Part shown: positions 4,879-61,747 of the stretch, piece after piece | Layout of the letters: every line of letters begins with the position of its first letter | Position numbering within the stretch: position 1 is the first letter of the stretch | From: a virus | Taxonomy: Duplodnaviria > Heunggongvirae > Uroviricota > Caudoviricetes | Length of the DNA: 64,000 bases | IMG/VR virus record: IMGVR_UViG_3300021256_000007 | Location: 32,440-96,439 of that record | Strand: one strand, 5' to 3' | Program-made: the position numbers and the translations under genes | The notes under the pieces: model-generated | Told to the model about the DNA's origin: nothing | What the model saw: only the letters and a program-made list of their open reading frames with translations | Database searches by the model: none

Positions 4879-5256
4879 ATGATTCGCTGTAAGGTGAAAG
4901 GTGATTTTAAGAAGACTAAAGGTTTTCTGAGTCGCATTCGACGGTTAAATCTTGAAAGTCTCCTTAAACCATATGCAGAAGCGGGCGTAAAGGCGCTAGC
5001 ATCTGCCACACCGGTCGTTACCGGAAAAACAGCTGCTTCTTGGGGATACGAAATTGTCAGGGAGCGAGACAAAATTACAATATATTGGACAAACTCAAAT
5101 AAAAACGAAGGCGTACCGATCGCTGTCATTCTTGAATATGGACATGGCACCGGATGGGGCGGGTACGTTCAAGGCAGGCATTTTATTTCTCCTGCCATTC
5201 GGCCAGTTTTTGATGAAATAGCTGAAGCTGCCTGGAAGGAGGTTACGAAAGACTAA
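4879..5256 (+). CDS. hypothetical tail component (HK97 gp10-like features)
   Basis: 125 aa with the segment VILEYGHGTGWGGY. An RBS (AAGGAG) precedes it. The family call is weak. Confidence 0.3.
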   Translation: MIRCKVKGDFKKTKGFLSRIRRLNLESLLKPYAEAGVKALASATPVVTGKTAASWGYEIVRERDKITIYWTNSNKNEGVPIAVILEYGHGTGWGGYVQGRHFISPAIRPVFDEIAEAAWKEVTKD

Positions 5257-8200: not shown

Positions 8201-11200
8201 TAAAGGTGTCAGCGGTTTATGGACCGCATTTACTGAAAAAATTAAAGAAGGATTTGCGAAGCTGAATCTTTCGACGATCTTTAATACAGTAAAAGAAAAG
8301 TTTACTGGTTTCTTTGGAAAAATTGGAGAAGCTTTTGGGAAATTGTCAGACATAAAATTATTTGATGGCGATTTCTTCGAAAATCTTTACGAGAGTTTGA
8401 CTGATTGGCTGCATTTATTTACCGGTTTTGCTATCTTTGGTTTAATTCGTTCTGCGAAAAAAGTAATTAATGCTATCGGAGATATTTTAAAAACACTTGG
8501 CGGTGTTCCGAAAGATATTAAGGCAAACCAGATGGGAACCGCTTTTCTTAAATTAGCTGGCGGTATTCTTTTAATTGCTCTTTCTTTAAAAATTATCTCG
8601 ACAATACCGACCGATATGCTGTTTGACGTATGGTCTACGATTATAAGTTTATTGATTGCCATTGGTGCATTTGCCGCCTATATTAAAATGATTAAGGGCG
8701 AAAGTGCTTTGAAATCTGTGCTTTCTGTAGCAGCCGGAATTGCTTTATTAGCGCTTACATTGTATGGCTTAAGTAAAATGACGTCTGGAGATTTCTTTTC
8801 TGGTGTTTGGAAATTAGGTCTTATTATGGTAATGCTTGTGGGATATCTTCATCTTACAGATGGCATTAAAGTCGACAGCATGAAGACATTGATCGGTATG
8901 GCTGTTGGCTTGCTTGCAATGGCTTTAGTTATTAAAAAATTATCAAAGATGTCAGATGAAAAATATAGCAACGGTGTAGCAAAATTATTCTTGATTATGG
9001 CGATGATGGTTGGCTATTTGCATCTAATTGATGGCGTTAAAGCCGGTAGCATGAAGGCTGCTATTGGTATGGCTGTTGGTGTGTACGTTTTATCACTTGT
9101 AGTTCAAAAATTATCTAAGAATACTATAGGCAAGGCTGTAACTGGAATTGTGCAGTTATTTTTCATTCTAGCAATGATGGCCGGATATATGAAGATAATT
9201 GACGGTATACACATTAGCGGTACGACGCTTGGGGCGATGGCTCTTATGATTCTTTCAGTTGTTGTTATAGCTGGCGCGTTAATGCGTCTAACTCACTATA
9301 ATTGGAAGGCACTGTTGGCGACTTCTGGTTCCATTGCACTTTGTTTAGTTACGATCGCCGGCTCAATTGCTTTAGTAAGTAAATTTGCTGACAAAATGAG
9401 TTTGTCTGCTTTTACAGCACTGGCTGTTGGTATAGCTGCATTTGTTGTGATCGCTGCGGTTCTTACTCGTTTAGCTGATTACGATTGGAAAACGATTGGA
9501 TTAGCGGCTCTGACATGCGTTCTTACATTAGCTGCTGTAGCGGGCGTTGTTGTACTTCTTGGCAACGTAAGTCCAGGCGCGGCGGCCAAAGGTATTGCCG
9601 TGTTAGCTATTATAGCAATCGGCTTTGGCGTTATTGTAGTCACTTTAACTGCCCTTGGTTTGGCGGCTGCTGCAATTGCTGTTGAAATGGCAAAAAAGCT
9701 TGATGAGTTTGCCACAGCTATGCAGCCCTTTGTAAATACAATTAGTAGCTTTGATGACGGAACTAAAGAGAGTTTTCAGCGCTTTGCTGGCATGATGCTA
9801 TCTCTTTTACAAGCTGAATTTTGGATGTTTTTGGCTGGAATTTTGTCAAAATTAACTGCTAGTGGCGATCTTGGAGTTAAATTGTCGCTTTTTATGGTTG
9901 CTTTACAACCATTTTTAACAAATGTTGGAAATGTAACATCCGCGCATGTTATTGGGGCTAGCATGCTGTCTTCGGTAATGAAGTCTATTGCCGGCATGGA
10001 ACTATGGGGCAAAGTATCTGAGATTTTAAACGGCCTCGATGGTGATATTGCTACCAGATTATCAGAATTTGGTACGAATCTTGGTCCGTTCTTAGCAGCT
10101 CTTGGTCTTGTGACTCCTGAAATGGAACAGCAAGCCGGATATCTGTCTGGTTTGATGAAGGCACTCGTTAAAGCTGAAATCTGGTCGACAATCAGCGAAT
10201 GGATTAACGGTTTAACTGGCGAAGATTCGATGGCGAATTTTGCCGAGCGCTTAAATACGTTTACAGGGGCATTGATTCCGTTTTTAACTGCGATGTCTTC
10301 GTTGAATGCCGGAACAATAGAGCAGACAAAAACGACACTTTCGGTGCTTTCAGATTTGACAAAGAATAAGACTATTTCGAATCTTGGTAGTCAAATTAAT
10401 TCTTTCTATAATAATTTCAACAAAGGCGGTAAGGGTGCAAACGGTGATCTTACGGCACTAAAAGATACTGTTTCTATCGTTACAGATCTTTCAACAGCTT
10501 TAAGTAATATTTCTACGTTTACCACCGATACAAGCTTCGGTTCCGATTTTATGATGTCATTGTCCACGAATATCTCAAATAGCCAGACGATTTTAACAAG
10601 TGGCATTGCTGTTACCGTTACGACCGCTATCTCGAACGCTTTTGCTGCTATCGTACCGGCAGTTGAATCTGACGGTTATAACGTTGGCGCAGGCGTTGCT
10701 CAGGGCATGTACAACAGCAGCTCGCTTATTACGAAAGCTGGCCTTCATCTCGCAAGATTAGCAGAGCGTAGCGTTGCTTCTGGTTTGCAAATCAAATCTC
10801 CTTCCCGTGTTATGGCGGCACTGGCGGCTTATATTCCGGCAGGTATTGCTAAGGGCGTAGAGGAGAATTCCGGTGTTGCAGTCGATTCTATGACGGTTCT
10901 TGGAAGTTCGATCATTGCGGCGATGCAAATGGCTATGCTTCGTGTGGCTACAGTCGCCGATGAGAATTTCGAGTTTAGTCCGACGATCACGCCAGTTGTT
11001 GATATGAGCAACGTGGCTTACGCTGCCGGTAATGCGAATCAGATGTTCGGTTCTATTTCGTCCGGTTTGCGTGGCTCTATGCGAATTACCACCGAAAACG
11101 CAGCTAATACTGCAGCTATGGTACGCTATGGCACCGGTTCAACCGGCATCGTTGATGAGATTCAGAATCTCTCGTCGAAACTTGATATGCTTGGCGAAGC

Positions 11201-11312
11201 AGTTGCTAACATGCAAATCGTGCTTGATACGGGCGAACTCGTCGGTGCCACTTCACATAAAATGGATAATGCTTTCGGCGAAATGCAAGTTCATAGGGGA
11301 AGGGGGAACTAA
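5256..11312 (+). CDS. tail tape measure protein
   Basis: 2018 aa with an N-terminal helical/coiled region and a central block of many hydrophobic transmembrane-like segments. It sits between the chaperone and Dit genes. Confidence 0.85.
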   Translation: MPNTGNVDERIVEMQIDHQKFEAGAKKTISILEKLDSALNSLGKNNSDGLDSITGSLEKVTNKFSVMGTVGDQVIRNLTNKAIALVDQMGRVAKSLSIDQVSAGWDKYAEKTQGVQTIMAATSDTVGDRFATQAEQMEWVNEELEKLNWFTDETSYNFLDMVNNIGKFTSNGVELETAVTAMQGISNWAAISGANVGEASRAMYNLSQAMAAGSVKLIDWKSIENANMATTEFKKTALETAVALGTLEKVGEGTYQTLGGKSFTQEQFNTQLSEGWFTSDVLLQTLDQYGAFTDELNKVYNATGLQTKQILEQVEAYKEGKKVSAELIPYIEKLADAQYELGFRAFRAAQEAKTFEDVINATKDSVSTAWMNLFETIFGDYLTAKKLWSDMAESFYNIFTEPVNKLIEIFDTAFGEKNPLRDKLAEVNLSMTEFEATASNMEDAEIKGLIEQYGSLEAALRAGAVSAELLNKVMMQLQDDKVSSVVTEAGGIVDRKIEEIRDAARQFNEGKLTKKEIQNRDLDFSMVKWWAKVYKTANKDDTLEGWTDKFKEQYFDEIAASVGYTEEEIARIKEILADNEGVIDGMQSEAVNRRSGLDLFAESLMNLLHAVENVVEAISGAFDIIFGDTNEQGEVIYGWIERFNKFTEGVKSATEDIEGLSAKIAGILSIFHSVAAFVKGAFRLAFHAAFTVVAVVASLLLEVFGIIQNSGVIQAFGSAITTVFQALLVPLSIIGDLIKDLFDKLFGNKLKDFDWAERLAYYLNDISVRVSIAASRFSRFLKSKTVAEALSNAFEKLHETVTKVAAAFSNGYKKLKAFVDLMKLGYEKNGIVGVFDILNSKIKLTLRNHPTLLKAYQTIGSVFKKIGETVDTSFGKVKAWFNNLVAFAKELKTAFQLNGLKGAFELLSSKVNEFLEKHPKIMGVLTGIQNAFSSVGTWIMSTAEAIKRWFSSIDFSKIGTSIQSAISKIRAFFASLKQIYKDKGVSGLWTAFTEKIKEGFAKLNLSTIFNTVKEKFTGFFGKIGEAFGKLSDIKLFDGDFFENLYESLTDWLHLFTGFAIFGLIRSAKKVINAIGDILKTLGGVPKDIKANQMGTAFLKLAGGILLIALSLKIISTIPTDMLFDVWSTIISLLIAIGAFAAYIKMIKGESALKSVLSVAAGIALLALTLYGLSKMTSGDFFSGVWKLGLIMVMLVGYLHLTDGIKVDSMKTLIGMAVGLLAMALVIKKLSKMSDEKYSNGVAKLFLIMAMMVGYLHLIDGVKAGSMKAAIGMAVGVYVLSLVVQKLSKNTIGKAVTGIVQLFFILAMMAGYMKIIDGIHISGTTLGAMALMILSVVVIAGALMRLTHYNWKALLATSGSIALCLVTIAGSIALVSKFADKMSLSAFTALAVGIAAFVVIAAVLTRLADYDWKTIGLAALTCVLTLAAVAGVVVLLGNVSPGAAAKGIAVLAIIAIGFGVIVVTLTALGLAAAAIAVEMAKKLDEFATAMQPFVNTISSFDDGTKESFQRFAGMMLSLLQAEFWMFLAGILSKLTASGDLGVKLSLFMVALQPFLTNVGNVTSAHVIGASMLSSVMKSIAGMELWGKVSEILNGLDGDIATRLSEFGTNLGPFLAALGLVTPEMEQQAGYLSGLMKALVKAEIWSTISEWINGLTGEDSMANFAERLNTFTGALIPFLTAMSSLNAGTIEQTKTTLSVLSDLTKNKTISNLGSQINSFYNNFNKGGKGANGDLTALKDTVSIVTDLSTALSNISTFTTDTSFGSDFMMSLSTNISNSQTILTSGIAVTVTTAISNAFAAIVPAVESDGYNVGAGVAQGMYNSSSLITKAGLHLARLAERSVASGLQIKSPSRVMAALAAYIPAGIAKGVEENSGVAVDSMTVLGSSIIAAMQMAMLRVATVADENFEFSPTITPVVDMSNVAYAAGNANQMFGSISSGLRGSMRITTENAANTAAMVRYGTGSTGIVDEIQNLSSKLDMLGEAVANMQIVLDTGELVGATSHKMDNAFGEMQVHRGRGN

Positions 11313-11315
11313 GCT

Positions 11316-12380
11316 ATGCCTAATGGTTTAATTGACGATCAGGGCAATTCTATTATTGCTATTATCGTTGAAGATCCGGCAACCGGGACAGAGGAATCGG
11401 TTCCAGTTAGCGCTGATCCTAAACTGCAAAGCAAAACGGTAACGCCTACTAGGGCTGGGCAAACAGTTTCTCCGGATTCGAATTATGACGGTTTGAGTTC
11501 CGTCACATTGCAGGGCATCCCGAATGAGTATGTTATTCCTTCGGGTACCCTTGCAATCAATCAAAATGGAATCAGAAATGTTGGTCAATATGCTCAAGTT
11601 AATGTAAACGTTGGTAGCTCAAAGCCTGCCGAAGGCGAAAGCTCAAAGCAGGCTCAGGCCTATCATTCAATTACAATCGGAACAAAAAACACTTGGGACG
11701 ACTGGCATCTGGTTCCAACATCCAGACCGACTTTCGCTATGCCGAATGTAAAAACCAATTATGTGGAAATACCGGGTGGCGATGGCGTTCTCGATCTTTC
11801 TACCGTGCTAACGGGCCGTCCGACTTACGGGAATCGTCAGGGAAGTTTCGAATTTCTCGTGATGAACGACTATGGTTACTGGGCTGATCGTTACAGTGAA
11901 ATAGCAAACTATCTGCATGGTAAGACGTTTAAAGCCGTTCTCGACGATGATCCTGAGTTTTTCTACGAAGGGCGATTCTCGCTGAATGAATGGCGAAGTG
12001 AAGAACAGTGGTCTAAGATCGTAATTGATTATAATGTCGGACCTTACAAACAGTATCTGAAATCGGCCGGTGATAGATGGCTTTGGGATCCGTTCGACTT
12101 TGAAAACGGTGTTATCAATAACTATCGTAATCTTATTGTAAACGGTACTCTGAACGTCACATATGTCGGCGATGTATATGAAACGTCTCCGATCATTACA
12201 TGTTCTAAGATCGATACCGATACTGCTTTTTCTATGAGCGTTACATTTAATAGTAAAACATACAAGCTAACAGCCGGTACTAATGTGCTTGATACGGTCA
12301 CGTTTGCGGCCGGAAATAATGAGCTCACTTTTACCGGAACTGGACGAATTAATATTGAAAATACGGGAGGCCGGTTATAA
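11316..12380 (+). CDS. distal tail protein (Dit-like) with an N-terminal repeat module shared with a fibre gene
   Basis: Position directly after the tape measure. The N-terminus carries LQSKTVTPTRAGQTVSPDSNYDGLSSVTLQGI, the same repeat type found in the 18527 fibre. Confidence 0.55.
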   Translation: MPNGLIDDQGNSIIAIIVEDPATGTEESVPVSADPKLQSKTVTPTRAGQTVSPDSNYDGLSSVTLQGIPNEYVIPSGTLAINQNGIRNVGQYAQVNVNVGSSKPAEGESSKQAQAYHSITIGTKNTWDDWHLVPTSRPTFAMPNVKTNYVEIPGGDGVLDLSTVLTGRPTYGNRQGSFEFLVMNDYGYWADRYSEIANYLHGKTFKAVLDDDPEFFYEGRFSLNEWRSEEQWSKIVIDYNVGPYKQYLKSAGDRWLWDPFDFENGVINNYRNLIVNGTLNVTYVGDVYETSPIITCSKIDTDTAFSMSVTFNSKTYKLTAGTNVLDTVTFAAGNNELTFTGTGRINIENTGGRL

Positions 12381-32338: not shown

Positions 32339-32584
32339 ATGAAAAAGGCTGTTTACATGAGACTAGGTATTTTGGCTATTCTTATGCTGATCAGTGCGCT
32401 TACGGGCTTTGCAGAGCTCGGTGTGGCCACTGCTTTCGACATGAAGTTCGAAGGTATGGGCTATCTTGAGTATCTGCACGCATTCTATAGCGTTCCGTGG
32501 CATACGGCACTAGCTGGAATCGTGTTGGTTGTTGTGTTCACGGTTGCAACAGAAGTGATCTACCGTGGAATGAAGGAAAACTAA
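32339..32584 (+). CDS. small membrane protein
   Basis: 81 aa, three hydrophobic helices. RBS AAGGAG. Confidence 0.4.
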   Translation: MKKAVYMRLGILAILMLISALTGFAELGVATAFDMKFEGMGYLEYLHAFYSVPWHTALAGIVLVVVFTVATEVIYRGMKEN

Positions 32585-32940: not shown

Positions 32941-33315
32941 ATGGAAGAAAACAAGACTGCCGAAATTACGAAGGAGAAGAAGGATAACATTCTTGTCAGA
33001 GGTAAGAAATGGATGCAGAACAAACTGGATTCTATTGCCAAGTTTACATCTGACAATCCGCAGATGATCTTTCCGATCGTGACTGCCTTTGGATCATTGG
33101 CCTTGACAGGGCTCAGAATGATCGCTGGAGCAGGGGCGAATCAGATTGATCATTGCCGGGTTGAAGACGATGTAACCGGCGAGGAATTTATCACGAAGCA
33201 TCCTCTCACAAACGACGAGATCCTCGAACTCGGGAATCGTATGATCGACGGAGAATGGAAGGGAAGTGCCCTAAACGACATGGGGCTGCTCAAAAACGAA
33301 AAACATAGGAAGTAA
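32941..33315 (+). CDS. hypothetical protein
   Basis: The start codon is the ATG inside the 13-mer TTCAAAATGGAAG. RBS AAAGGAGC. Confidence 0.45.
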   Translation: MEENKTAEITKEKKDNILVRGKKWMQNKLDSIAKFTSDNPQMIFPIVTAFGSLALTGLRMIAGAGANQIDHCRVEDDVTGEEFITKHPLTNDEILELGNRMIDGEWKGSALNDMGLLKNEKHRK

Positions 33316-33410
33316 TTCCGAAAGGAGGCGTTGTTTTTACAGCGTCTCTCTTTTTTCGTAATTTTCGCAACCGTTATAATGAGACTATATTTAAAAGAGG
33401 AGGAATGTTA

Positions 33411-33530
33411 ATGAACGAAGGATCCATGAAGTTACTGCTAGTGGGTGCCGGAGCGATAATTGCGTTTAGCCAATTTGGCCCAATAGGAATTATCGTGCTC
33501 GGCGTCGTGCTGATGCTGGTAAACAAGTGA
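33411..33530 (+). CDS. small membrane protein (39 aa)
   Basis: Driven by the duplicated promoter-RBS cassette. Confidence 0.3.
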   Translation: MNEGSMKLLLVGAGAIIAFSQFGPIGIIVLGVVLMLVNK

Positions 33531-33625
33531 GATTCTTGAGGAGCTAAATATTACAGCTCCTCCTTTTTTTCGTAATTTTCGCACCTATTTAGATGAAAGA
33601 AACCTAATTTTAAGGAGGAAATATT

Positions 33626-33820
33626 ATGAAAAGAGTTATCTATGCAATGCTGATGGTGCCATTGGCTTTGTGCGTGGCCTACGGTCTGGTGAATTTTGGT
33701 ACAGATATCGTATCTGGAAACCTGAATATCCTGGACTGGATAGCCGGCCATAAAGTCATTCTGGCATTCGTGGCGTGCTACATAGGGCTCCAGTTCATTG
33801 GACCCTTCAAGAAGAGTTAA
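33626..33820 (+). CDS. small membrane protein
   Basis: 64 aa, two transmembrane helices. RBS AAGGAGG. Confidence 0.4.
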   Translation: MKRVIYAMLMVPLALCVAYGLVNFGTDIVSGNLNILDWIAGHKVILAFVACYIGLQFIGPFKKS

Positions 33821-33871
33821 TTTCAATCAAAATGGAAGTAGTTTTTACAGCTACTTTCATTTTTTTTTGAG

Positions 33872-34117
33872 CGTGTGCAATTTCGTGTGCATTTTTATCT
33901 ATTTCGTGTGCAATTTCGGTTTCTTGCATGAAAGATATTCTGTACATACAAGTGGTCAAAAACTGCATGAAATCAAAGAAAAAGCCCCGAACCATTGCGG
34001 CTCAGGGCTTTGGAAATTGGTGGAGATGGGGGGAGTTGAACCCCTATAGAAAAGACCTTCAAATATGCATGAAATCAGGAAAGTTTACTCGTTGTGTGCA
34101 TTTTCGTGTGCAGTTTT
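33872..34117 (+). other. candidate attP region: five direct arm-type repeats (C/T)GTGTGCA(A/T/G)TTT flanking a tRNA 3'-end-like core
   Basis: Repeats at 33872, 33884, 33905, 34093 and 34105, all in the same orientation. They bracket the tRNA-like segment at 34018-34045 and abut the 3' end of the integrase gene. Confidence 0.4.
34018..34045 (-). other. tRNA 3'-end-like fragment (T-arm + acceptor 3' strand + CCA), putative attP core
   Basis: The minus strand reads AGGGGTTCAACTCCCCCCATCTCCACCA: a T-stem/loop, a 7-nt acceptor strand, a discriminator and CCA. No 5' half is present. Confidence 0.4.
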
Positions 34118-35137
34118 GGAGTCTAAAAAGAGCGACTCCATATGAGAGTCGATTAAATCTGAGAACGAATCCTCTTTTTCAATCATCGTGTGCTGGTATA
34201 CTGTCTTCAGCATATTGTCAGTTTTGTGCCCCATACGTTTCATGGCGTATTTATCAGGGACGCCAAGAGAGTGGGCTTCAGATGCTGCGAAATGTCTGAG
34301 ATCATGGAAGCGGCATTGTGTGATATTTGCCTTTTCACAAAGTCGAATAAATCCTTTGTAGATCGCAGCCTGAGTTAGGGAAACTACGTAATCTGAATCG
34401 TGTGGCTGCTGGTCAATAATGGTTTTAATCTCCTTCGGGCATTTAATCCAGCGGTCTCCGGCGAGAGATTTCGTAAGTTTTTCGGCAGGTCCGTCTTCTC
34501 CTTCGACAATTGCACGCTGAATGTGGATTCGGTCACCAATGATATCTGAAAACTTAAGGCCACGAATTTCACTCATACGAAGGCCGAGCCAAGATGCCAA
34601 AACAATCGGAAGGTAATATTTTGTTCCTTCGGCAGTTTGGTAAAGTTTCTTAAGCTCATCTTCGGTAAGAATCGAGATTTCGTGAGGTTCTTTCTGAGGA
34701 AGAGTAGTTCTCAGGACAAAATTTGGACGGTACTCCTTTAAAACTGCACTGAGAAGTCCGTGAGCATTCCTGACAGATTTGCTACTAGCACCGCGTTTAA
34801 AATCAGCATTGATAGCTTTTTGTACCTGTTCCTGCGTGAGATCCGTGATATTTTCCTTCATGAGAGGTTGAAGGTAATTCTTACGGATCTTTTTATAGCC
34901 TCGGATGGTAGCAGGAGAGAGAACACTGTCTTTTACTTCGATATACTGATCGAAAGCTTTTCCGACTGTAAGAGGTATGCGCTTTTCGAACTGAAGGCCT
35001 GCATAAAGTTCTTTCGCTTTCTGCTTGACAACTTTCGGATCAGGATCGGTTATGCTGTACCGTTTGCCGTCAACTGCGATTTGAATCCGCCAATTTCCAG
35101 ATGGTAGTTTCTTTGCCTTTGGTAGTTTCATCGGCAT
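34085..35137 (-). CDS. int: tyrosine site-specific integrase
   Basis: C-terminal R..HxLRH..A......Y motif (RFHDLRHFAASEA...LKTVYQHT). The MPMKLPKAK start has GGAGGA upstream on the minus strand. An upstream in-frame Met at 35254 is also possible. Confidence 0.8.
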   Translation of the reverse strand: MPMKLPKAKKLPSGNWRIQIAVDGKRYSITDPDPKVVKQKAKELYAGLQFEKRIPLTVGKAFDQYIEVKDSVLSPATIRGYKKIRKNYLQPLMKENITDLTQEQVQKAINADFKRGASSKSVRNAHGLLSAVLKEYRPNFVLRTTLPQKEPHEISILTEDELKKLYQTAEGTKYYLPIVLASWLGLRMSEIRGLKFSDIIGDRIHIQRAIVEGEDGPAEKLTKSLAGDRWIKCPKEIKTIIDQQPHDSDYVVSLTQAAIYKGFIRLCEKANITQCRFHDLRHFAASEAHSLGVPDKYAMKRMGHKTDNMLKTVYQHTMIEKEDSFSDLIDSHMESLFLDSKTAHENAHNE

Positions 35138-35210
35138 TCCTCCTTCAAAATGGAAGTATAACACGAAAACGTAAGATTTACAACTAATATAATGAAAGGA
35201 GATGTCAATA

Positions 35211-35444
35211 ATGGATTTTGATTGGACTGATTCGTCATCCGATGAGTTCAGCATACATTTAACAAAACAAGAAGAAGCTTGTTATGCGGCAATGTTCGAG
35301 GATCGTCCACGGTTATTCGAATATCGTGAAAACGAGTATCCTAAATATTGTGCAGATAGCAAGAAAATAATAGCGATGTATGTTGAAGAATTCGGCTTAG
35401 GGAAAGAATCTATCAACAGAATCTTTGAACATTATTTTATGTAA
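35211..35444 (+). CDS. hypothetical acidic protein
   Basis: RBS AAAGGAG. 77 aa. Confidence 0.4.
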   Translation: MDFDWTDSSSDEFSIHLTKQEEACYAAMFEDRPRLFEYRENEYPKYCADSKKIIAMYVEEFGLGKESINRIFEHYFM

Positions 35445-35472
35445 CCTGAGGCTACAACGCCTTAGGTTTTTT
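35445..35472 (+). terminator. terminator, one of three near-identical copies
   Basis: Stem CCTGAGG/CCTTAGG plus T6. The same module recurs at 35765-35792 and 37041-37064. Confidence 0.5.
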
Positions 35473-35527
35473 CGTATATTTTACAACGTCTATAATGAAG
35501 GATAAAAAATAAAGGAGGAAAATCTAA

Positions 35528-35764
35528 ATGACTAGTGTAAACGGTATGATTGTCGGTACAGCTGCCGAGATCAAGGCCGTAGAGAAGTCCATGCGTAGAG
35601 CTTGGCGAACGGATAAGTCGGCTATCTGGCCGTCGCATTCCGATGCACCTCGCTTTACCCCGTGGAAGATCTACGGAATTGCTCTCGAACCGGGCGACCG
35701 GCACACCACGTATTACGTGGTCAATGCGGACACTATCCTACGGGATATGTTGTCCTTCGCTTAG
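35528..35764 (+). CDS. hypothetical protein
   Basis: 78 aa. RBS AAGGAGG. Confidence 0.4.
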   Translation: MTSVNGMIVGTAAEIKAVEKSMRRAWRTDKSAIWPSHSDAPRFTPWKIYGIALEPGDRHTTYYVVNADTILRDMLSFA

Positions 35765-35883
35765 ACCTGGGGCTACAACGCCTTAGGTTTTTTCGTATAT
35801 TTTACAACGGCTCTTTTTTTTTCGCAAAACCTACAACCTCATAAATGAAGCAATATGCTTACATTATATTTGGAGGTAAAAAT

Positions 35884-36186
35884 ATGGATAGAGAAGACGC
35901 AAAAGAGTATCTGCGGGCTTGGCTGAAATATATGAAGATCATACCGAAATACTGGATCGTTTACAAGTTCGGGCACTGGTCGCGTCTCATCGGAAAGTTT
36001 TATTCGAACCTGATCAATAAATCGGTAAATAAGCCGAAGTTGTTCAAGTTCTTTGGGCTCCGGTGGTGCGCCTGGATGTTGCGAGCCAATTACTGGTTCG
36101 ATCGGTGTGATGCGTTAAGAGCTGATGTGCAAGACCCTTTGGATACCATGGATTATATCGTGAAATTTTATCGCTTTGATATGTAA
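35884..36186 (+). CDS. hypothetical Trp/Tyr-rich protein
   Basis: ATG 35884 after GGAGGTAAAA. 100 aa. Confidence 0.4.
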   Translation: MDREDAKEYLRAWLKYMKIIPKYWIVYKFGHWSRLIGKFYSNLINKSVNKPKLFKFFGLRWCAWMLRANYWFDRCDALRADVQDPLDTMDYIVKFYRFDM

Positions 36187-36221
36187 GTACAGCGAAAGTA
36201 GAGCTGGCAACGGCTTTACTT

Positions 36222-36404
36222 TTTCGCATATTTTACAGCGCCTATAGTGAGAGGAGGCGAATGGTCAAGCGGAAAGCTTTATAAATCGGTTATGCAAGGC
36301 CGGGGATGAAAGGGCCCCAACGATCCGTAATAGCTCAATGGTAGAGCGCCGGGAAACCGGAGACGTGGGTTCGAAGCCCACAACTCTCACAGTTTTTATT
36401 TTTT
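36222..36404 (+). ncRNA. promoter-driven short transcript carrying a tRNA-like structure that lacks an acceptor stem and anticodon loop
   Basis: A promoter-like element at 36222-36252 and a T-tract terminator at 36391-36404 bracket it. Internal to it are a canonical D-arm (TAGCTCAATGGTAGAGC), a CCGG-GAAA-CCGG tetraloop hairpin and a T-arm (GTGGGTTCGAAGCCCAC). The 5' GTGAGAG can pair with the 3' CTCTCAC. Confidence 0.35.
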
Positions 36405-36446
36405 TTTTCGTATATTTTGCAACTTCATAAATAAGGAGGCGATTAT

Positions 36447-36728
36447 ATGTTTTTTGAAAGTATGAAAAAAATTTATCCGCTTGGAACAAAAGTTGGATAT
36501 CGTTACCGGCTGGACCAGCCATATATACTTGGCACAATCGTCGGGCATCAGCGTGGGCTTTATGGTGAGCCTGCTTATCCTGGCGATAAAAGACCATTTT
36601 ATATTAAAATACGGAACTGGGACAATCCGGATTATACTACAACTTTTGATCCAGTTGGCGGATTCGTGAAAGCATATTTTACGAAAGACGCGATTGATCG
36701 TGACTTTAAAAACGGGAAGCTAATTTAA
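36447..36728 (+). CDS. hypothetical protein
   Basis: 93 aa. Promoter cassette identical to that of the 36785 gene. Confidence 0.45.
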   Translation: MFFESMKKIYPLGTKVGYRYRLDQPYILGTIVGHQRGLYGEPAYPGDKRPFYIKIRNWDNPDYTTTFDPVGGFVKAYFTKDAIDRDFKNGKLI

Positions 36729-36784
36729 CAGCTTCCTAGTTTTTTCGTATATTTTGCAACTTCATAAATGAGGAGGCGAAAACT

Positions 36785-37039
36785 ATGAAAGAATTAGTTA
36801 TAGACAACAGGAAACGCACTAATGAACTAATGGATATTGTTTCAAGATTTAGCGCAAAAGTAGGTAACGCTTATGTCGAGCTGCTTAGCGATCTTATCAA
36901 ATACGGAGAAGATCCTAAAAATGTAGAGCTGTATAAGAGTACCGGCTATGACTGGGTAGTGAAACCTGAAATTGGGGCGTTATACAGCACGGAAAAAACT
37001 ATAAATAATCTATTAGAAAACTTCTACATCAAAGCCTAG
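36785..37039 (+). CDS. hypothetical protein
   Basis: 84 aa. RBS GAGGAGG. Confidence 0.45.
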   Translation: MKELVIDNRKRTNELMDIVSRFSAKVGNAYVELLSDLIKYGEDPKNVELYKSTGYDWVVKPEIGALYSTEKTINNLLENFYIKA

Positions 37040-37126
37040 GGTTGCAACGCCTTAGGTTTTTTCGCAATTTCAGCAGCTCCTATGATGGAATGACCAAGAT
37101 TCCAATAAAATTATAGGAGGAAATCT

Positions 37127-37495
37127 ATGAAAACTTTGAAAGAAATCAAGGAAGACGTCGATCTTAAGCTCTGGGAGCTCAAGTACAAAGCGACGAAGAA
37201 AGCTGAAAAAGCCATCAAATGGTGCGAAGAAAACAAGGAACTAGCGATTGCTATGATTCCGGTAGGTCTCGTGGCTATTCGTTCGATCGGTAACACGATT
37301 CGTTCGGTAGACCGAAAGATCGATCTGAAGAAAGAGCAGGAACTCCAGGACCTGTATGTCTATGACCATTCGTTGGGGATGTATCACAAGCTTCGGCGTC
37401 CGCTGAAACCGAGCGAAAAAATTGAGATCGATCGGCGCCGTGCCAACGGAGAATCCAAGGTACAGATTTTGTCCAGTATGGGTCTCTTGGACTAA
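37127..37495 (+). CDS. hypothetical protein
   Basis: 122 aa. The 13-mer sits immediately after its stop codon, followed by a terminator hairpin. Confidence 0.45.
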   Translation: MKTLKEIKEDVDLKLWELKYKATKKAEKAIKWCEENKELAIAMIPVGLVAIRSIGNTIRSVDRKIDLKKEQELQDLYVYDHSLGMYHKLRRPLKPSEKIEIDRRRANGESKVQILSSMGLLD

Positions 37496-37592
37496 TTCAA
37501 AATGGAAGCTGTTGCGCTTGCAGCGGCTTCTTTTTTTTTCGTAATAATTACAGGCCCTATAATGCAAGATTTAATTTAAAGGAGGATATTTT

Positions 37593-37871
37593 ATGAACGA
37601 GAACATCCTGTATGAACTTAATGCAAAAGTTTGCGAGGAAAAGGACCTGTACGATCCTGAAGAAATCGAATTGATGAAAGCAAACGGTAAAGCCGGCGCG
37701 CAGAGACTCTATATGGTGTTCAATAACATTGTTAATGAACATATAAATAATGGTTCTGCGACGGAAGCCACTGCTTTTCTGAACGAGATGCTCAGTATTA
37801 TCAGTCAAATTATGCCTCAAGAAAAATTCATTGAGTTCGAACGGATTGTTCAAAATTCCCTAGCGAATTAA
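37593..37871 (+). CDS. hypothetical protein
   Basis: 92 aa. RBS AAGGAGG. Confidence 0.45.
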   Translation: MNENILYELNAKVCEEKDLYDPEEIELMKANGKAGAQRLYMVFNNIVNEHINNGSATEATAFLNEMLSIISQIMPQEKFIEFERIVQNSLAN

Positions 37872-37969
37872 TCGAGCATTGGCTAAGCGCTGATAATACA
37901 GTGTCTTAGCTTTTTTCGTAAAGTCTACAACTACATAAATGAAGATAATTTTTAAAGGAGGAGTTTAGT

Positions 37970-38119
37970 ATGCCCGATAAAGAAACGAATGAATACGAAC
38001 AGATGTTCCCCATCATGATGAACAAATGGCTTAATGGGGAAATTGATGATGAGGAAATTCATGAATTTCTTGACGAGTTCATGAGTGCTCCTGGACAAAA
38101 AAGAATGATATTTGAATAA
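37970..38119 (+). CDS. small acidic protein (49 aa)
   Basis: RBS AAGGAGGAG. Promoter-like element upstream. Confidence 0.3.
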   Translation: MPDKETNEYEQMFPIMMNKWLNGEIDDEEIHEFLDEFMSAPGQKRMIFE

Positions 38120-38455: not shown

Positions 38456-38797
38456 ATGAAGTATTACTACGAAAAACCTGAATCATGGCTTGGCGCTGGC
38501 AAGATCTATCGCTGTGATCATCCGCTATATAACCAGTGCACTTTGTTTCAAAGCGGGGAAGTCGGTCTAGCAATCATTCAGGAAAAATACAATAAAAAGA
38601 CCAAAGCCCGATGGTGGAGTTCCATCGAGCCCTGGCTTGCTGGTGATATTTACTTAAACAAAGGATTCGAAATGTACTTCATCGATCATGCAGGTCCGCC
38701 GGATGAAAACGGACTATACCCGACCGTTCCCGTGCGAAAGATCATGTGGGCTCTTCGCATGAAGCCGCTTAAGAAAGAGGAATGGGAAACCGATTAA
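38456..38797 (+). CDS. hypothetical protein
   Basis: 113 aa. The 13-mer lies 7 nt upstream, after a terminator. Confidence 0.45.
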   Translation: MKYYYEKPESWLGAGKIYRCDHPLYNQCTLFQSGEVGLAIIQEKYNKKTKARWWSSIEPWLAGDIYLNKGFEMYFIDHAGPPDENGLYPTVPVRKIMWALRMKPLKKEEWETD

Positions 38798-44158: not shown

Positions 44159-44192
44159 TTGATATTTGCATTACGAAAGGAGAATTCTGAAT

Positions 44193-45257
44193 ATGTTAGG
44201 AATTATTTTAGCAGTTATCATTCTTATTGCGGGATTCGGAATTACATTCGCCGTCAATAAGGTAAAGCAGGCAGAGTACAACGAAAAGTATGAAGACTGG
44301 GAAAACGCCAAACAGATCGCAGCGGCTCGGTTTCCGAACAACGTATGGAAGAAACCGGAACCGAAGAAGCCCGAGACAATTAAGTTTCCGGTGCTGATTG
44401 CGATTCCGTTGGCCGTGATTATTCTCATCGCAAGCTGTCTGGCTATTGTTCCGACCGGGTATACCGGCATTCTGACAACTTTCGGCAAAGTGGAAAACCG
44501 CACGATTCCGTCCGGTATCAGTTTCATTGCTCCTTGGCAGAATGTCATTAAAATGGATAACCGGACACAGAAAGTTCAGATCCAGACAAGTGCATTTTCC
44601 AGTGATATTCAGCAGGTCGACGTTCAGCTTTCAGTAAACTACTGCATCGATCAGGAAACGGCTCAGGTTCTCTATCGAACAGTTGGTACGAACTATTACG
44701 AAAACATTATGTTCCCGCGTATCCAGGAGAATCTGAAGGCTGTTTTCTCTCAGTATTCGGCTGAAAACCTGATTGCCAAGCGTGACAGCCTCTCGGATTC
44801 CATTGCTTCGGCTACGGCGAACGACATGAAGAACTATGGTATTACCATTGTTTCCATTGCCATCGAGGACATTGATTTCACCGATGCGTTCACCAATGCC
44901 GTTGAAGCCAAGCAGGTAGCAGCACAGAATAAGCTCACGGCTGAAACTCAGCAGGCCCAGAAGACAATGGAGGAAGAAGCCGCTGCCAAACGAGCTGTTA
45001 TTGCTGCGAATGCAGAAGCCGATAAAGCTATTATTGCCGCGAATGCCGATCTCGAAGTTGTAAAGGTTCAGGCTGAAGCTGCTCTCTATGCCGGCGAACG
45101 GGAAGCGGAAATGAATAAGCGTATTTCCGAATCTCTCGGCAACGGCATTATTGATTACTATTGGATCAAGCAGTGGAATGGCGAACTTCCGACTACGATT
45201 CTCGGCGGAGATGCGAACTATATGATCGATCTGACGAAGGGTGATGCTGCGGAATGA
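44193..45257 (+). CDS. SPFH/band-7 (prohibitin/HflK-like) membrane protein
   Basis: N-terminal transmembrane helix, then an SPFH-like core (TGYTGILTTFGKVENRTIPSGISFIAPWQNV...VDVQLSVNY) and a C-terminal A/Q/E coiled coil. Confidence 0.6.
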   Translation: MLGIILAVIILIAGFGITFAVNKVKQAEYNEKYEDWENAKQIAAARFPNNVWKKPEPKKPETIKFPVLIAIPLAVIILIASCLAIVPTGYTGILTTFGKVENRTIPSGISFIAPWQNVIKMDNRTQKVQIQTSAFSSDIQQVDVQLSVNYCIDQETAQVLYRTVGTNYYENIMFPRIQENLKAVFSQYSAENLIAKRDSLSDSIASATANDMKNYGITIVSIAIEDIDFTDAFTNAVEAKQVAAQNKLTAETQQAQKTMEEEAAAKRAVIAANAEADKAIIAANADLEVVKVQAEAALYAGEREAEMNKRISESLGNGIIDYYWIKQWNGELPTTILGGDANYMIDLTKGDAAE

Positions 45258-50763: not shown

Positions 50764-50848
50764 GCCGCTGTGGTGGAATAGGCAGACACAGCAGACTTAA
50801 AATCTGCCGACGAAAGTCGTGAGGGTTCGAACCCCTTCAGCGGTACCA
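50764..50848 (+). tRNA. tRNA-Leu (anticodon TAA), class II with a long variable arm
   Basis: Acceptor GCCGCTG/CAGCGGT (one G-U pair). Anticodon stem GCAGA/TCTGC with loop CTTAAAA. Variable arm GACGAAAGTCG. T-arm GAGGGTTCGAACCCCTT. Ends ACCA. Confidence 0.75.
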
Positions 50849-51017: not shown

Positions 51018-51093
51018 TGAGGCGTGGTGAAGCGGGTAACACAGCGGACTTTGACTCCGTTATTCGCAGGTTCAAATCCTGCCGCCTCAGCCA
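51018..51093 (+). tRNA. tRNA-Gln (anticodon TTG), probable
   Basis: Acceptor TGAGGCG/CGCCTCA. Anticodon stem GCGGA/TCCGT with loop CTTTGAC. T-arm GCAGGTTCAAATCCTGC. Ends GCCA. Confidence 0.65.
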
Positions 51094-52454: not shown

Positions 52455-52531
52455 GGATCGTTAGCTCAGTCGGTCAGAGCAGTGGTCTCATAAACCTCAG
52501 GTCCGGGGTTCAAGTCCCTGACGGTCCACCA
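52455..52531 (+). tRNA. tRNA with CAT anticodon (Met, or Ile via lysidine)
   Basis: Acceptor GGATCGT/ACGGTCC (one G-U pair). D-arm GCTCAGTCGGTCAGAGC. Anticodon loop CTCATAA. T-arm CGGGGTTCAAGTCCCTG. Ends ACCA. One mismatch in the anticodon stem. Confidence 0.65.
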
Positions 52532-55686: not shown

Positions 55687-56229
55687 ATGAGCCTTAGAAA
55701 CATCTATCTTATTGTCGGTCCATCCGGAAGCGGTAAGACATCCATCGCTAACGAACTGCAAACAACCTACGGATACAAAGCTGTTGAATCTTACACAACA
55801 AGACCTCCTCGCTACGATGGTGAGAGAGGTCATATTTTTGTCTCGGATGAGGAGTTCGACGCTCTCGGCCCCATGTGCGCCTATACCGAGTACAACGGCT
55901 ATCGCTACGGAGTTACCGACGATGTTATCGATTCCCATGATATTTATGTCATTGATCCGTATGGGGTGAAGTATTTAAAGGCGAAGTATAGAGGAAATAA
56001 AGATATTAAGTGTATTCGTCTGGAAGTTAATGAACTTGTTCGCTATCGTCGCATGAAAGACCGTGGAGACAGCAAAGAAATGATCGTAAAACGCCATGCA
56101 CAAGATAAGATCAGTTTCGGAAAAGAAGAATGGTTCATTCAGTACGACATGGTAATTCCAAACAATGATTTCACAAACACAGTCGAAGCGATCTATAGCT
56201 TCATTCAGTGTTGGGAAGGAGAAGGGTGA
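55687..56229 (+). CDS. gmk: guanylate kinase
   Basis: GPSGSGKTS P-loop, TTRPPRYDGERGHIFVSDEEF and YGV(T)DDV, the hallmarks of the guanylate kinase family. Confidence 0.75.
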   Translation: MSLRNIYLIVGPSGSGKTSIANELQTTYGYKAVESYTTRPPRYDGERGHIFVSDEEFDALGPMCAYTEYNGYRYGVTDDVIDSHDIYVIDPYGVKYLKAKYRGNKDIKCIRLEVNELVRYRRMKDRGDSKEMIVKRHAQDKISFGKEEWFIQYDMVIPNNDFTNTVEAIYSFIQCWEGEG

Positions 56230-59544: not shown

Positions 59545-59870
59545 TGCAGCATGTTGTCAATGTAGCTTTTGATTTTGATGACGATCGAGTCAAAAAGATT
59601 CTGGAAGACACTACCGTTGAGAAAGTCCAAAAAGATATTAAGCAAGCGATTATCGACGAAGTATTCGAAAAGAGCGATTGGGGTCGAGGTTCACACGCAA
59701 ACCCAGAAAACGATCCTCTTAGCGCGTGGGTAACCCGCTACATTAAGGAGCTCATCGGAGAATACAAAGAAGACATTATCAAGCAGGCCGGTAAAGAAAT
59801 TGCGCAAAGTATGATGAAGTCCAGTAAATGGAAACAAATGGTTATTGAGGAGACAAAAGCGCATGAGTGA
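59544..59870 (+). CDS. hypothetical protein
   Basis: 108 aa. Confidence 0.4.
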   Translation: MQHVVNVAFDFDDDRVKKILEDTTVEKVQKDIKQAIIDEVFEKSDWGRGSHANPENDPLSAWVTRYIKELIGEYKEDIIKQAGKEIAQSMMKSSKWKQMVIEETKAHE

Positions 59871-60432
59871 TATTTCGGTGAGTCACGGTATTTTGAGCGG
59901 GAATCGGATTCTGGAAGAAGTCGAAAAAGGAACCATCGTCATCGATCCCTTTGACAAAAAGTTTCTGAATCCGAACAGCTACAATCTTCATCTGGCAGAC
60001 GAGCTTCTCACTTATGAGCATGCCATCCTCGATATGAAGAAAGAGGAACCTTACATACTGGAACGTATTCCAACAGGAGGCAAACTTCTGATTCCGGACA
60101 AGTTATATTTGGGCAGAACCATGGAACGAACTTTCACTGATGGATTTGTTCCGATGCTGGAAGGCAGAAGCTCGATCGGACGCCTTGGAATATTTATTCA
60201 CGCAACCGCAGGCTTTGGCGATAACGGTTTTGACGGGTTTTGGACACTGGAGATCTCCTGTGTGCAGCCCGTCATTCTTTATGCCGGCGTGGAGATCGGA
60301 CAGATCTATTACCACACCATTGCCGACAGTAACGGAATGGGAGAAGTAGGCGTTCCGGTACACTATACAAACGGCAAATACCAGAAGAACACCGGAATTC
60401 AACCGAGCATGATCTGGAAGGAATTTCTGTAA
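59863..60432 (+). CDS. dcd: dCTP deaminase family protein
   Basis: GRSSIGRLGIFIHATAGFGDNGFDGFWTLEIS matches the dCTP deaminase/dUTPase-superfamily motif. Confidence 0.7.
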   Translation: MSDISVSHGILSGNRILEEVEKGTIVIDPFDKKFLNPNSYNLHLADELLTYEHAILDMKKEEPYILERIPTGGKLLIPDKLYLGRTMERTFTDGFVPMLEGRSSIGRLGIFIHATAGFGDNGFDGFWTLEISCVQPVILYAGVEIGQIYYHTIADSNGMGEVGVPVHYTNGKYQKNTGIQPSMIWKEFL

Positions 60433-60919: not shown

Positions 60920-61747
60920 ATGATTGGAGCTATTATTGGTGATATTTGTGGTTCTCGTTTTGAAGCTGACAACATTAAGACAAAAGACTTTGAATTGATG
61001 CCGCTAATGAAAGGCTGTAGGTTAACGGATGACAGTATCATGACGATGGCGATTGCGCTCGCAATTCTAGATTGTCATTGGGGAAATGGTACGATCGAAG
61101 AACTCAAAGAGCGCGCCATCTTTCGAATGCAAGAAGGAGGAAGAGGTTATCCGAATGCCGGATACGGTCATCGATTCTACCAGTGGATATTTTCATCTAA
61201 TCCAAAACCTTATAACAGTTATGGAAACGGAGCAGCTATGCGGGTCAGTCCCTGTGGATTTGCGGCGCGAACTCTTCAGGAAGCGATCGAGATGGCGGTT
61301 GCGGTTACGGAAGTCACACACAATCATCCGGAAGCTCTTAAAGCCGCTGAGACAGTAGCAGCTGTGATATTTCTTGCAAGAAGTGGAAAGAGCATGACCG
61401 AACTTAAAGATTATGTAGAGAAACATTATTGCACTCTCAATTTTACGCTTGATGATATTCGTCCGACATATAGATTCGACGTCTCTTGTCAGGGCAGCGT
61501 TCCGGTAGCATTAGAAGCGTTCTTTGAAGCAACGGACTTTGAGGATGCAATTCGTAATGCTATTTCAGTCGGAGGAGACAGTGATACGATTGCTGCGGTT
61601 GTCGGTGGAATGGCTGAAGCAAAATGGGGTGTTCCTCAAGGTATTCGTCATAAAGCCGAATGGTTCCTTAATAAATCTCAAAAAGAACTGATCGAGAAAT
61701 TTGAAAGTCAGGCTTGGACAGATTCTGGTATGGCGCCGCTCTGGTAA
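60920..61747 (+). CDS. ADP-ribosylglycohydrolase (ARH/DraG family)
   Basis: N-terminal GAIIGDICGSRFE and LTDDSIMTMAIA, C-terminal GGDSDTIAAVVGGMAEA. These are the metal-binding motifs of the family. Confidence 0.7.
   Translation: MIGAIIGDICGSRFEADNIKTKDFELMPLMKGCRLTDDSIMTMAIALAILDCHWGNGTIEELKERAIFRMQEGGRGYPNAGYGHRFYQWIFSSNPKPYNSYGNGAAMRVSPCGFAARTLQEAIEMAVAVTEVTHNHPEALKAAETVAAVIFLARSGKSMTELKDYVEKHYCTLNFTLDDIRPTYRFDVSCQGSVPVALEAFFEATDFEDAIRNAISVGGDSDTIAAVVGGMAEAKWGVPQGIRHKAEWFLNKSQKELIEKFESQAWTDSGMAPLW

Follow-up and report, generated by a model that had tools for sequence, protein, structure and literature searches.

The 64,000-nucleotide (nt) stretch of DNA analysed here, called the window below, covers positions 32,440 to 96,439 of the IMG/VR record IMGVR_UViG_3300021256_000007 (Caudoviricetes) and, judged from its sequence, represents a temperate siphovirus-type phage. 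One cassette of this phage has no protein gene and is filled instead by an element that resembles a transfer RNA (tRNA) whose anticodon arm is replaced by a short capped stem. An initial annotation had described it as an independently transcribed tRNA-like unit of about 140 nt, and every sequence feature listed there was located when the window sequence was inspected. The parts of the element are listed below.

The tRNA-like element and its cassette

36220-36248, plus strand: cassette promoter unit, a T-run followed by CGCATATTTTACAGCGCCTATAGT, with T-run, CG, CATATT (36227-36232), ACA and TATAGT (36243-36248)
36247-36253, plus strand: GTGAGAG, putative 5' strand of the closing (acceptor-equivalent) helix, 7-base-pair (bp) complement of 36384-36390
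36254-36330, plus strand: lineage-specific insert of 77 nt between acceptor position 7 and U8 (folded with RNAfold)
36267-36279, plus strand: insert hairpin AAGC-GGAAA-GCTT (RNAfold)
36285-36288 with 36321-36324, plus strand: insert hairpin ATCG/CGAT, with a GC-rich distal part GGGG (36302-36305)/CCCC (36315-36318) (RNAfold)
36331-36332, plus strand: U8-A9 (sequence and Rfam tRNA alignment)
36333-36347, plus strand: D-arm GCTC-AATGGTA-GAGC, carrying A14, G18 and G19 (Rfam tRNA alignment, posterior probability at its maximum symbol)
36348, plus strand: G26 (sequence)
36349-36360, plus strand: mini anticodon arm CCGG-GAAA-CCGG, a 4-bp stem capped by a GNRA tetraloop
36361-36364, plus strand: 4-nt variable region AGAC (sequence)
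36365-36381, plus strand: T-arm GTGGG-TTCGAAG-CCCAC (Rfam alignment)
36382-36383, plus strand: AA bulge between the T-arm and the 3' strand of the closing helix
36384-36390, plus strand: CTCTCAC, putative 3' strand of the closing helix, pairing with 36247-36253
36391-36392, plus strand: discriminator-like A36391 and then G36392, directly 3' of the closing helix
36393-36408, plus strand: T-tract T5-A-T10, 2 nt past the closing helix, a likely transcript end together with the T-run of the next cassette's promoter unit

A textbook D-arm and T-arm were indeed found 17 nt apart, separated by G-CCGG-GAAA-CCGG-AGAC. The Rfam tRNA model gave a local match at 36331-36381 (model positions 8-63) of 34.8 bits, against a gathering score of 29, and its alignment placed the 4-nt loop of the window element where the model expects 9 anticodon loop/stem positions. 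Only the tRNA family overlapped the element when the interval of 33-38 kb was searched in Rfam E-value mode up to 5. ARAGORN left the element uncalled in the window, where it reported only Leu, Gln and Met genes at 50.7-52.5 kb. That the locus is not a conventional tRNA gene was thus confirmed by both programs, the covariance-model search returning a local tRNA fragment with neither acceptor nor anticodon loop, and an ordinary tRNA gene hidden by a shift of coordinates was ruled out on the same grounds. The genes called by ARAGORN are bona fide phage tRNA genes (Leu-TAA at 50764-50848, Gln-TTG at 51018-51093 and Met-CAT at 52455-52531), located 14-16 kb from the element.

In common with canonical tRNAs (RF00005), the element has the D-arm, the T-arm, U8, A14, G18-G19, a T-loop with TTCGA, a variable region of 4 nt and G26; a terminal helix of 7 bp ahead of a discriminator-like A is predicted as well. 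It differs from them in having a 4-nt GNRA loop on a 4-bp stem instead of a 7-nt anticodon loop on a 5-bp stem, a 77-nt insertion between position 7 and U8, an AA bulge and no encoded CCA. The nucleotides that build the elbow (U8, A14, G18-G19, the T-loop TTCGA and G26/A44) are kept. Because a 4-bp stem with a GNRA cap replaces the anticodon arm, the RNA would be unable to read a codon. Its length is predicted to be roughly 145-160 nt, and RNAfold, with the RNA starting at 36237, gave pair probabilities of 0.91-1.0 for the D, mini-anticodon and T helices.

The promoter assignment relies on the phage's own repeated cassette motif. Cassettes to the right of the integrase follow a layout of terminator hairpin, T-run, CGTA-N7-ACA-N4-5-TATAAT-GA(A/G)G, Shine-Dalgarno (SD) sequence and small open reading frame (ORF), and the unit in front of the element matches the motif found 5' of 13 other single-gene cassettes in the window. 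It is also homologous to the units upstream of related elements at the loci L174, L177, L217, L037 and L091, which are described below. A generic sigma-70/terminator scan, on the other hand, called no promoter at 36222 and no terminator at 36391, so that the promoter and T-tract bracketing proposed in the initial annotation is supported by the cassette motif and the T-tract and not by the generic scan. The tail of the window element reads AACTCTCAC-AG followed by T5-A-T10. The T-arm stops 11 nt short of the T-run, so the T-tract is plausible as a terminator only with the closing helix, which ends 2 nt before it.

Single-gene cassettes of this kind make up the early region of the phage (30.1-38 kb and 51337 of the window). 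The terminator hairpins at 35443-35468 and 35763-35790 are near-identical repeats, and an exact 28-mer occurs at both 36405 and 36742. Phages of the L174, L177, L217 and L091 types have the same cassette layout.

The only ORF noted in the unit, a micro-ORF of 7 codons (ATG 36261 to TAA 36284, MVKRKAL and stop), was located as described. An SD-like GGAGG sits inside the 77-nt insert, and the SD-ATG spacing of the micro-ORFs is just 0-3 nt (3 nt in the window). The corresponding frame in L174, L177 and L217 reads MEYKP and stop, and is therefore conserved in neither sequence nor length. The micro-ORF was rejected as a gene for its lack of conservation and its short SD spacing. An antisense ORF at 36265-36597 was also rejected, since it is antisense to the next gene and is partly the reverse translation of the tRNA-like core.

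Homologs, covariation and a probable split acceptor

A pattern scan of metagenomes identified three true homologs of the window form (L174, L176 and L177), and a walk from a homolog of the L174-type upstream protein added a further lineage, L217/L218, and a 35.9-kb contig, L212. Together with the window these make four lineages (window, L174/L176, L177 and L217/L218). The 59-nt core is 96.6% identical between the window and L174/L177; neither blastn nor tblastx detected anything else that the window shares with those contigs. U8-A9 and the D-arm (36331-36347) are invariant across all four lineages. The third pair of the T-stem is G-C in the window and A-U in L174, L176, L177 and L217, a compensatory change. 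Three lineages have GAAA as the mini-arm loop, and L217/L218 have GUAA instead, which is again a GNRA loop. A hairpin within the insert reads TAAATCG/CGATTTA in L174 and TAAACCG/CGGTTTA in L217, where a U-A pair has become C-G, and contains G-U wobbles in L177. Both homologs and covarying pairs, looked for as the initial annotation had proposed, were thus found, and its suggestion of a degenerate tRNA is disfavoured by this conservation and covariation across unrelated phage backgrounds.

The insert is far more variable. It is 77 nt long in the window and 54 nt in L174, L177 and L217, and the window and L174 inserts have only about 16 nt in common, namely TAAATCGGT.AT and CGAT. No other homolog of the window insert was found in any locus fetched.

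Further searches for relatives were mostly negative. INPHARED nucleotide searches returned no relatives for a 301-nt region or for the 24 kb around the element, and a relaxed INPHARED search with a 63-nt core returned just D-arm matches to ordinary tRNAs and a truncated element of Streptomyces phage Yara. Flanking proteins used as bait in IMG/VR gave no relatives. The core pattern matched 20 loci in GTDB genomes, none in a Firmicutes-named genome, and judged by match length most of these look like ordinary tRNAs. Two candidate signatures were discarded. GTGAGAG upstream of a D-arm matched ordinary tRNAs or chance sequences in IMG/VR outside one Bacteroides-type family, and the T-arm plus an AACTC tail gave a single chance match in coding-like DNA.

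The initial annotation had held that the element has no acceptor stem. Indeed, the 7 nt directly 5' of U8 pair with just 1 of the 7 bases of AACTCTC. The more distant pairing that it had also pointed out, between GTGAGAG (36247-36253) and CTCTCAC (36384-36390), is a perfect 7-bp complement. At least 7 bp between the flanks arose in 342 of 20,000 shuffles of both flanks (1.7%), and RNAfold gave this helix a pair probability of 0.93-0.95 for an RNA assumed to start at 36237. Complementarity between the 5' and 3' flanks occurs in every lineage, as GTGAGAG/CTCTCAC in the window, GAGGAG/CTCCTC in L174/L177 (where GGAGT/ACTCC is an alternative pairing) and GAGAGGAG/CTCCTCTT in L217. AA followed by a CU-rich 3' strand is kept in all four lineages, with AACTCCTC in those other than the window. 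This recurrence is suggestive and does not amount to strict covariation.

A stronger argument for acceptor identity may come from position. Two loci, L037 (Rfam 53.8 bits) and L091 (50.0 bits), give full-length tRNA matches with a truncated core and a contiguous, perfect 7-bp acceptor stem, which starts 1-5 nt past the promoter box (TATAGT-A-GAAATAA in L037, TTTAAT-GAGAG-AAATAGG in L091). In the window, GTGAGAG starts within its own TATAGT box. Because GTGAGAG/CTCTCAC occupies the site of the canonical 7-bp stem of L037 and L091, the acceptor would be split by the 77-nt insertion rather than absent. The window form looks like an L037-type gene with about 77 nt inserted after acceptor position 7 and an AA bulge at the T/acceptor junction. 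L037 shares an integrase homolog with the window, and the L091 family shares a homolog of the window ORF 38456-38797. The closing helix probably forms in vivo, a point on which we are fairly but not strongly confident.

Paired DUF6353 genes (PF19880) are located about 1 kb downstream of the element in L212 (11477-12247 and 13728-14633) and L217 (2246-3013 and 4477-5382), and by eye a similar-looking ORF of 262 amino acids is located about 1.2 kb downstream in L177, and two DUF6353-like ORFs (7053-7826 and 8040-8894) directly downstream in L091. DUF6353 had no match among the larger window ORFs scanned.

Other truncated tRNA-like genes, known mimics and the phage setting

L037, the L091 family and the element of the cultured phage Yara have in common with the window the G26-CC..GG-AGA(C/T) design of the core and a short capped stem, and L037 and L091 also have the same promoter-box context. 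They differ from it by a contiguous acceptor stem (7/7 pairs), no insert and a length of 66-68 nt, whereas the window/L174 type has the probable split acceptor, the insert and the AA bulge. The Yara element (MH019215.1, 42269-42317; about 1494-1561 in L219) is unannotated, is located between gp58 and gp57, and reads GGACGGA-TA-GCTC-AATGGCT-GAGC-G-CCGG-GACG-CCGG-AGTT-GCAGG-TTCGAAT-CCTGC-TCTGTCC-A with a 7-bp acceptor. The ribosome-binding site (RBS) of gp57 begins directly past its discriminator base.

A strict pattern (GGTAGAGC, 12-22 nt, GGTTCGA) gave at least 120 matches in IMG/VR. Across the loci fetched, D and T stems were present in 70 of 124 distinct matches. Among these 70, at least 40 distinct IMG/VR sequences combine 6-7 of 7 acceptor pairs and D and T arms with only 9-19 nt where a tRNA has about 26. 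The mini-stems vary in sequence while pairing is kept (CCGG/CCGG, CCAC/GTGG, CTGC/GCAG, CCGT/ACGG, GTCCC/GGGGC and others), and among 14 independent loops of 4 nt, 5 belong to the GNRA or UNCG type (binomial p = 3e-4). In some genes with a perfect acceptor, D-arm and T-arm, a 9-nt connector replaces the whole anticodon arm and variable loop; such loci, among L010-L128 (for example L030, L083, L085, L101, L074 and L063), are more extreme than the window form. ARAGORN missed truncated elements or labelled them 'tRNA-???', and among those missed are L037, L091, L174, L177 and L217. These genes look like a provisional group of anticodon-truncated tRNA-like genes in phages, apparently widespread and unannotated. 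Full-text literature searches found no published name or description for them, and in a large survey of candidate structured viral RNAs 'tRNA-like' candidates are mentioned only generically (PMC10690425). On one contig of the series, L104, an Rfam int-alpA RNA match (6272-6348, 37.9 bits) occurs together with a GAAA-capped truncated tRNA-like gene at about 11439-11507.

The Bacteroides-type family L001-L009 (for example L004, 6155-6281, minus strand) also has no proximal acceptor strand. This family and the L174 insert share the 10-mer CCGTGAGAGG, followed by a hairpin. L001-L009 carry the (C)CGTGAGAGG-plus-hairpin motif in their 5' domains, as do the inserts of L174, L177 and L217, otherwise unrelated tRNA-like RNAs that also lack a proximal acceptor strand. 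In L001, 82 nt separate GTGAGAGG from the D-arm, compared with 83 nt in the window (36247-36254). The parallel in motif and spacing between L001 and the window may be due to chance, since the other GTGAGAG matches were ordinary tRNAs. L001-L009 were rejected as direct homologs because nothing in them can pair with their 3' tail to form a closing helix and because their mini-arm has to compete with an alternative fold.

Several known RNAs imitate tRNAs without decoding. YrlA, a bacterial Y RNA whose tRNA-like domain is joined to a Ro-binding stem, is reportedly a non-decoding tRNA mimic with conserved tertiary contacts of the D- and T-arm, and is said to occur in phages as well. The strand of YrlA enters via an anticodon-like stem, its acceptor end is closed, and its T-arm should precede its D-arm. 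The window RNA resembles it as a non-decoding mimic with conserved D-/T-arm contacts and, if that arm order holds, differs from it in having the D-arm before the T-arm, a closed anticodon stem and both ends at the acceptor; no non-tRNA Rfam family matched. A Ro60/Rsr (TROVE) protein was not seen among the 20 larger window ORFs scanned with Pfam, a scan in which no search was aimed at it. The mascRNA and MEN-beta tRNA-like small RNAs reportedly have a degenerate anticodon arm and are recognised by tRNA-processing enzymes without decoding. Plant mitochondrial t-elements are likewise reported to be tRNA-shaped RNAs recognised by tRNA-processing enzymes (PMC1920247). The mascRNA and MEN-beta RNAs and the t-elements are eukaryotic or organellar and are cut from a long precursor, whereas the window element forms a phage cassette by itself, complete with a promoter-like unit and a U-tract. 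From its predicted architecture the element is a tRNA mimic like YrlA, the tRNA-like domain of transfer-messenger RNA (tmRNA), mascRNA and viral tRNA-like structures, and a member of none of these.

Other features of the phage are the following.

5256-11312: tape-measure gene
34018-34050, minus strand: tmRNA/tRNA 3'-end-like fragment adjoining the integrase, in which GGGGTTCAACTCCCCCCATCTCCACCA comprises a T-arm half, the acceptor 3' strand and CCA
34085-35254, minus strand: tyrosine integrase

The element sits 1.1 kb from the integrase. Within 33000-38000 the sole Rfam tmRNA match was a local one of 12.5 bits at 34030-34044 (gathering score 47), and ARAGORN found no full tmRNA in the window. 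The fragment at 34018-34050 is probably the core of the phage attachment site, attP, in which case integration would take place at ssrA or a tRNA gene. Auxiliary genes recognised by Pfam in the window are SPFH/Band 7 (44166-45257), guanylate-kinase-like (55687-56229) and dCTP deaminase-like (59845-60432) genes, as well as an ADP-ribosylglycohydrolase (60920-61747) that may matter for ADP-ribosylation-based conflicts.

Competing explanations and a proposed role

We tentatively favour the reading that the element may be a genuine phage gene kept by selection, whose tRNA-derived product does not decode but mimics the tRNA body in trans. The RNA would be transcribed from the promoter of its cassette, in the early region near the integrase, and would fold into an L-shape with an extra arm formed by the insert domain. 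Its elbow and acceptor-like helix would then be offered to proteins that read those features. The natural readers of the elbow and acceptor helix are RNase P, RNase Z, the CCA-adding enzyme and enzymes that modify the T and D loops, and these would be candidates here, as would tRNA-targeting toxins and defence nucleases. Loss of the anticodon loop would keep the RNA out of translation while its body stays available, as a mimic, decoy or sponge needs. The sequences themselves show the anatomy, its conservation and covariation, and that the element belongs with the other anticodon-truncated phage genes; we infer the points at which transcription starts and stops, folding of the closing helix in the cell, any processing step and which protein is bound.

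Several observations weigh against this reading. The relatives L207-L210 carry homologs of the downstream ORF with 73-97% identity and ordinary short intergenic gaps without the tRNA-like element; because these closest relatives do without it, the element is dispensable, an accessory, moron-like cassette. Among the 20 larger window ORFs, the Pfam scan showed neither a partner protein nor a gene for tRNA repair or tRNA targeting. The folding energy of the whole RNA is unexceptional (z = -1.27), and three of the four lineages are mutually close. The register of the closing helix differs between the window and L174/L217, and covariation of this helix is weaker than it appears, because of that difference and because purine/pyrimidine (GA/CU) runs pair easily. 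The second promoter box, TATAGT (36243-36248), fits the -10 consensus of the cassettes, and with this box as -10 transcription would start near 36255 and exclude the 5' strand of the closing helix. The alternative candidate for the -10 is the first box, CATATT (36227-36232), with a start near 36237. Three observations argue for transcription of the region past the second box: in L037 the selected acceptor strand begins 1 nt past it; in the window cassettes at 36399, 36740 and 51337, which have the best first boxes (TATATT or TATAAT), a well-spaced SD follows directly past it; and the U-tract could terminate only if the closing helix forms. A decoy or hijacking function, as raised in the initial annotation, would fit all observations, none of which supports it specifically.

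The element might instead be a cis-acting RNA, a terminator or insulator and/or an entry site for RNase P and RNase Z that punctuates neighbouring mRNAs, in the manner of plant mitochondrial t-elements or the MALAT1-mascRNA junction. RNase P and RNase Z need no anticodon arm, and their indifference to it would explain why that arm alone was lost. The U-tract directly past the closing helix doubles as the T-run of the next cassette, and the upstream gene (35845-36186) has just a weak hairpin before the element. The Yara element is placed between gp58 and gp57 with the gp57 RBS right after the discriminator, and in L091 some 40 nt, in which no promoter is apparent, separate the element from a DUF6353-type gene downstream. 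In L174, L177 and L217, however, the element stands between a strong terminator on its 5' side and a new promoter unit on its 3' side, which leaves no mRNA to punctuate. Every other cassette has an ordinary short hairpin terminator, and the elbow nucleotides and D-arm are kept beyond what a terminator needs. We regard a cis-acting role as unlikely. A regulatory small RNA on a tRNA scaffold, with the variable 5' insert as a base-pairing or protein-binding effector and the tRNA-like part providing only stability, processing and termination, appears still more doubtful. It would fit the constant core and varying insert (77 nt in the window, 54 nt in the L174 type, about 16 nt in common), the insert hairpin kept by compensatory change in L174, L177 and L217, and the (C)CGTGAGAGG-plus-hairpin motif shared with the 5' domains of the unrelated L001 family. 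Yet the core is far more conserved than the insert and has a role of its own, because L037, the L091 family and Yara carry the truncated RNA without any insert.

A non-functional remnant is very unlikely, whether a tRNA pseudogene or a recombination scar that lost its anticodon loop and was broken by a fragment of a promoter/RBS cassette. The missing proximal acceptor strand, the resemblance of the 5' part to the phage's own promoter/SD unit TGAG(AG)GAGGCGA and the absence of the element from the closest relatives would suit such an origin, and the integration of mobile elements commonly leaves partial tRNA genes behind (PMC9897764). Against it stand a core about 97% identical across phages that share nothing else detectable, the compensatory changes in the T-stem and the insert hairpin, and the changed loop that stays GNRA within a group in which stable tetraloops are enriched. 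Integration scars are 3'-terminal tRNA pieces at element ends, whereas the window element represents an internal stretch from D-arm to T-arm, and the attachment-site-like fragment of this phage lies elsewhere, at 34018-34050. For these reasons, and given its distance from the integrase, a tRNA fragment left as a duplicated attachment site was ruled out. Least probable of all, and to our mind barely credible, is a chargeable, tmRNA-like RNA whose split acceptor is processed, CCA-tailed and aminoacylated and whose micro-ORF serves as a tag frame. The topology of a 5' acceptor strand, a short ORF with a stop, a tRNA-like core and a 3' acceptor strand recalls the tRNA-like domain of tmRNA, which likewise has no anticodon and has its acceptor strands parted by a long segment with a short ORF, and the phage appears to integrate at a tmRNA-like site. 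tmRNA has a G3-U70 pair, an encoded CCA, pseudoknots and a conserved tag frame, and no true D-arm. The window element, unlike tmRNA, has a canonical D-arm, no G3-U70 (its helix runs G-C, U-A, G-C), no encoded CCA, no pseudoknots and a micro-ORF that is not conserved, and the tmRNA searches of the window gave only the weak match at the attachment-site-like fragment.

Beyond the non-decoding mimic favoured for the window, a broader and doubtful proposal is that phages of several host phyla encode an unrecognised class of anticodon-less tRNA mimics, which would decoy or inhibit immune nucleases and toxins that target tRNAs. Such a class would range from minimal forms of about 60-68 nt to the split-acceptor form with an added domain. 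Its targets would include Toprim nucleases of the OLD/PARIS/Septu type, retron effectors, anticodon nucleases and toxins that modify the acceptor. In the anticodon stem of tRNAs, paired CNG motifs are the sites that P2 OLD cleaves (PMC12445682). The CCGG/CCGG mini-stem of the window has CNG on both strands, and this palindromic stem with its paired CNG would be the bait.

Phage tRNAs are now being reinterpreted as counter-measures to host nucleases that destroy tRNAs (PMC12445682, PMC11555353). An RNA with a tRNA body but no anticodon cannot replace a cleaved tRNA and would therefore have to work by being recognised rather than by decoding. The split-acceptor form suggests that the scaffold can accommodate a large extra domain or even make use of it. 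If confirmed, these genes would be untapped natural tRNA mimics and would offer a handle on the proteins that read the elbow and acceptor during infection or lysogeny.

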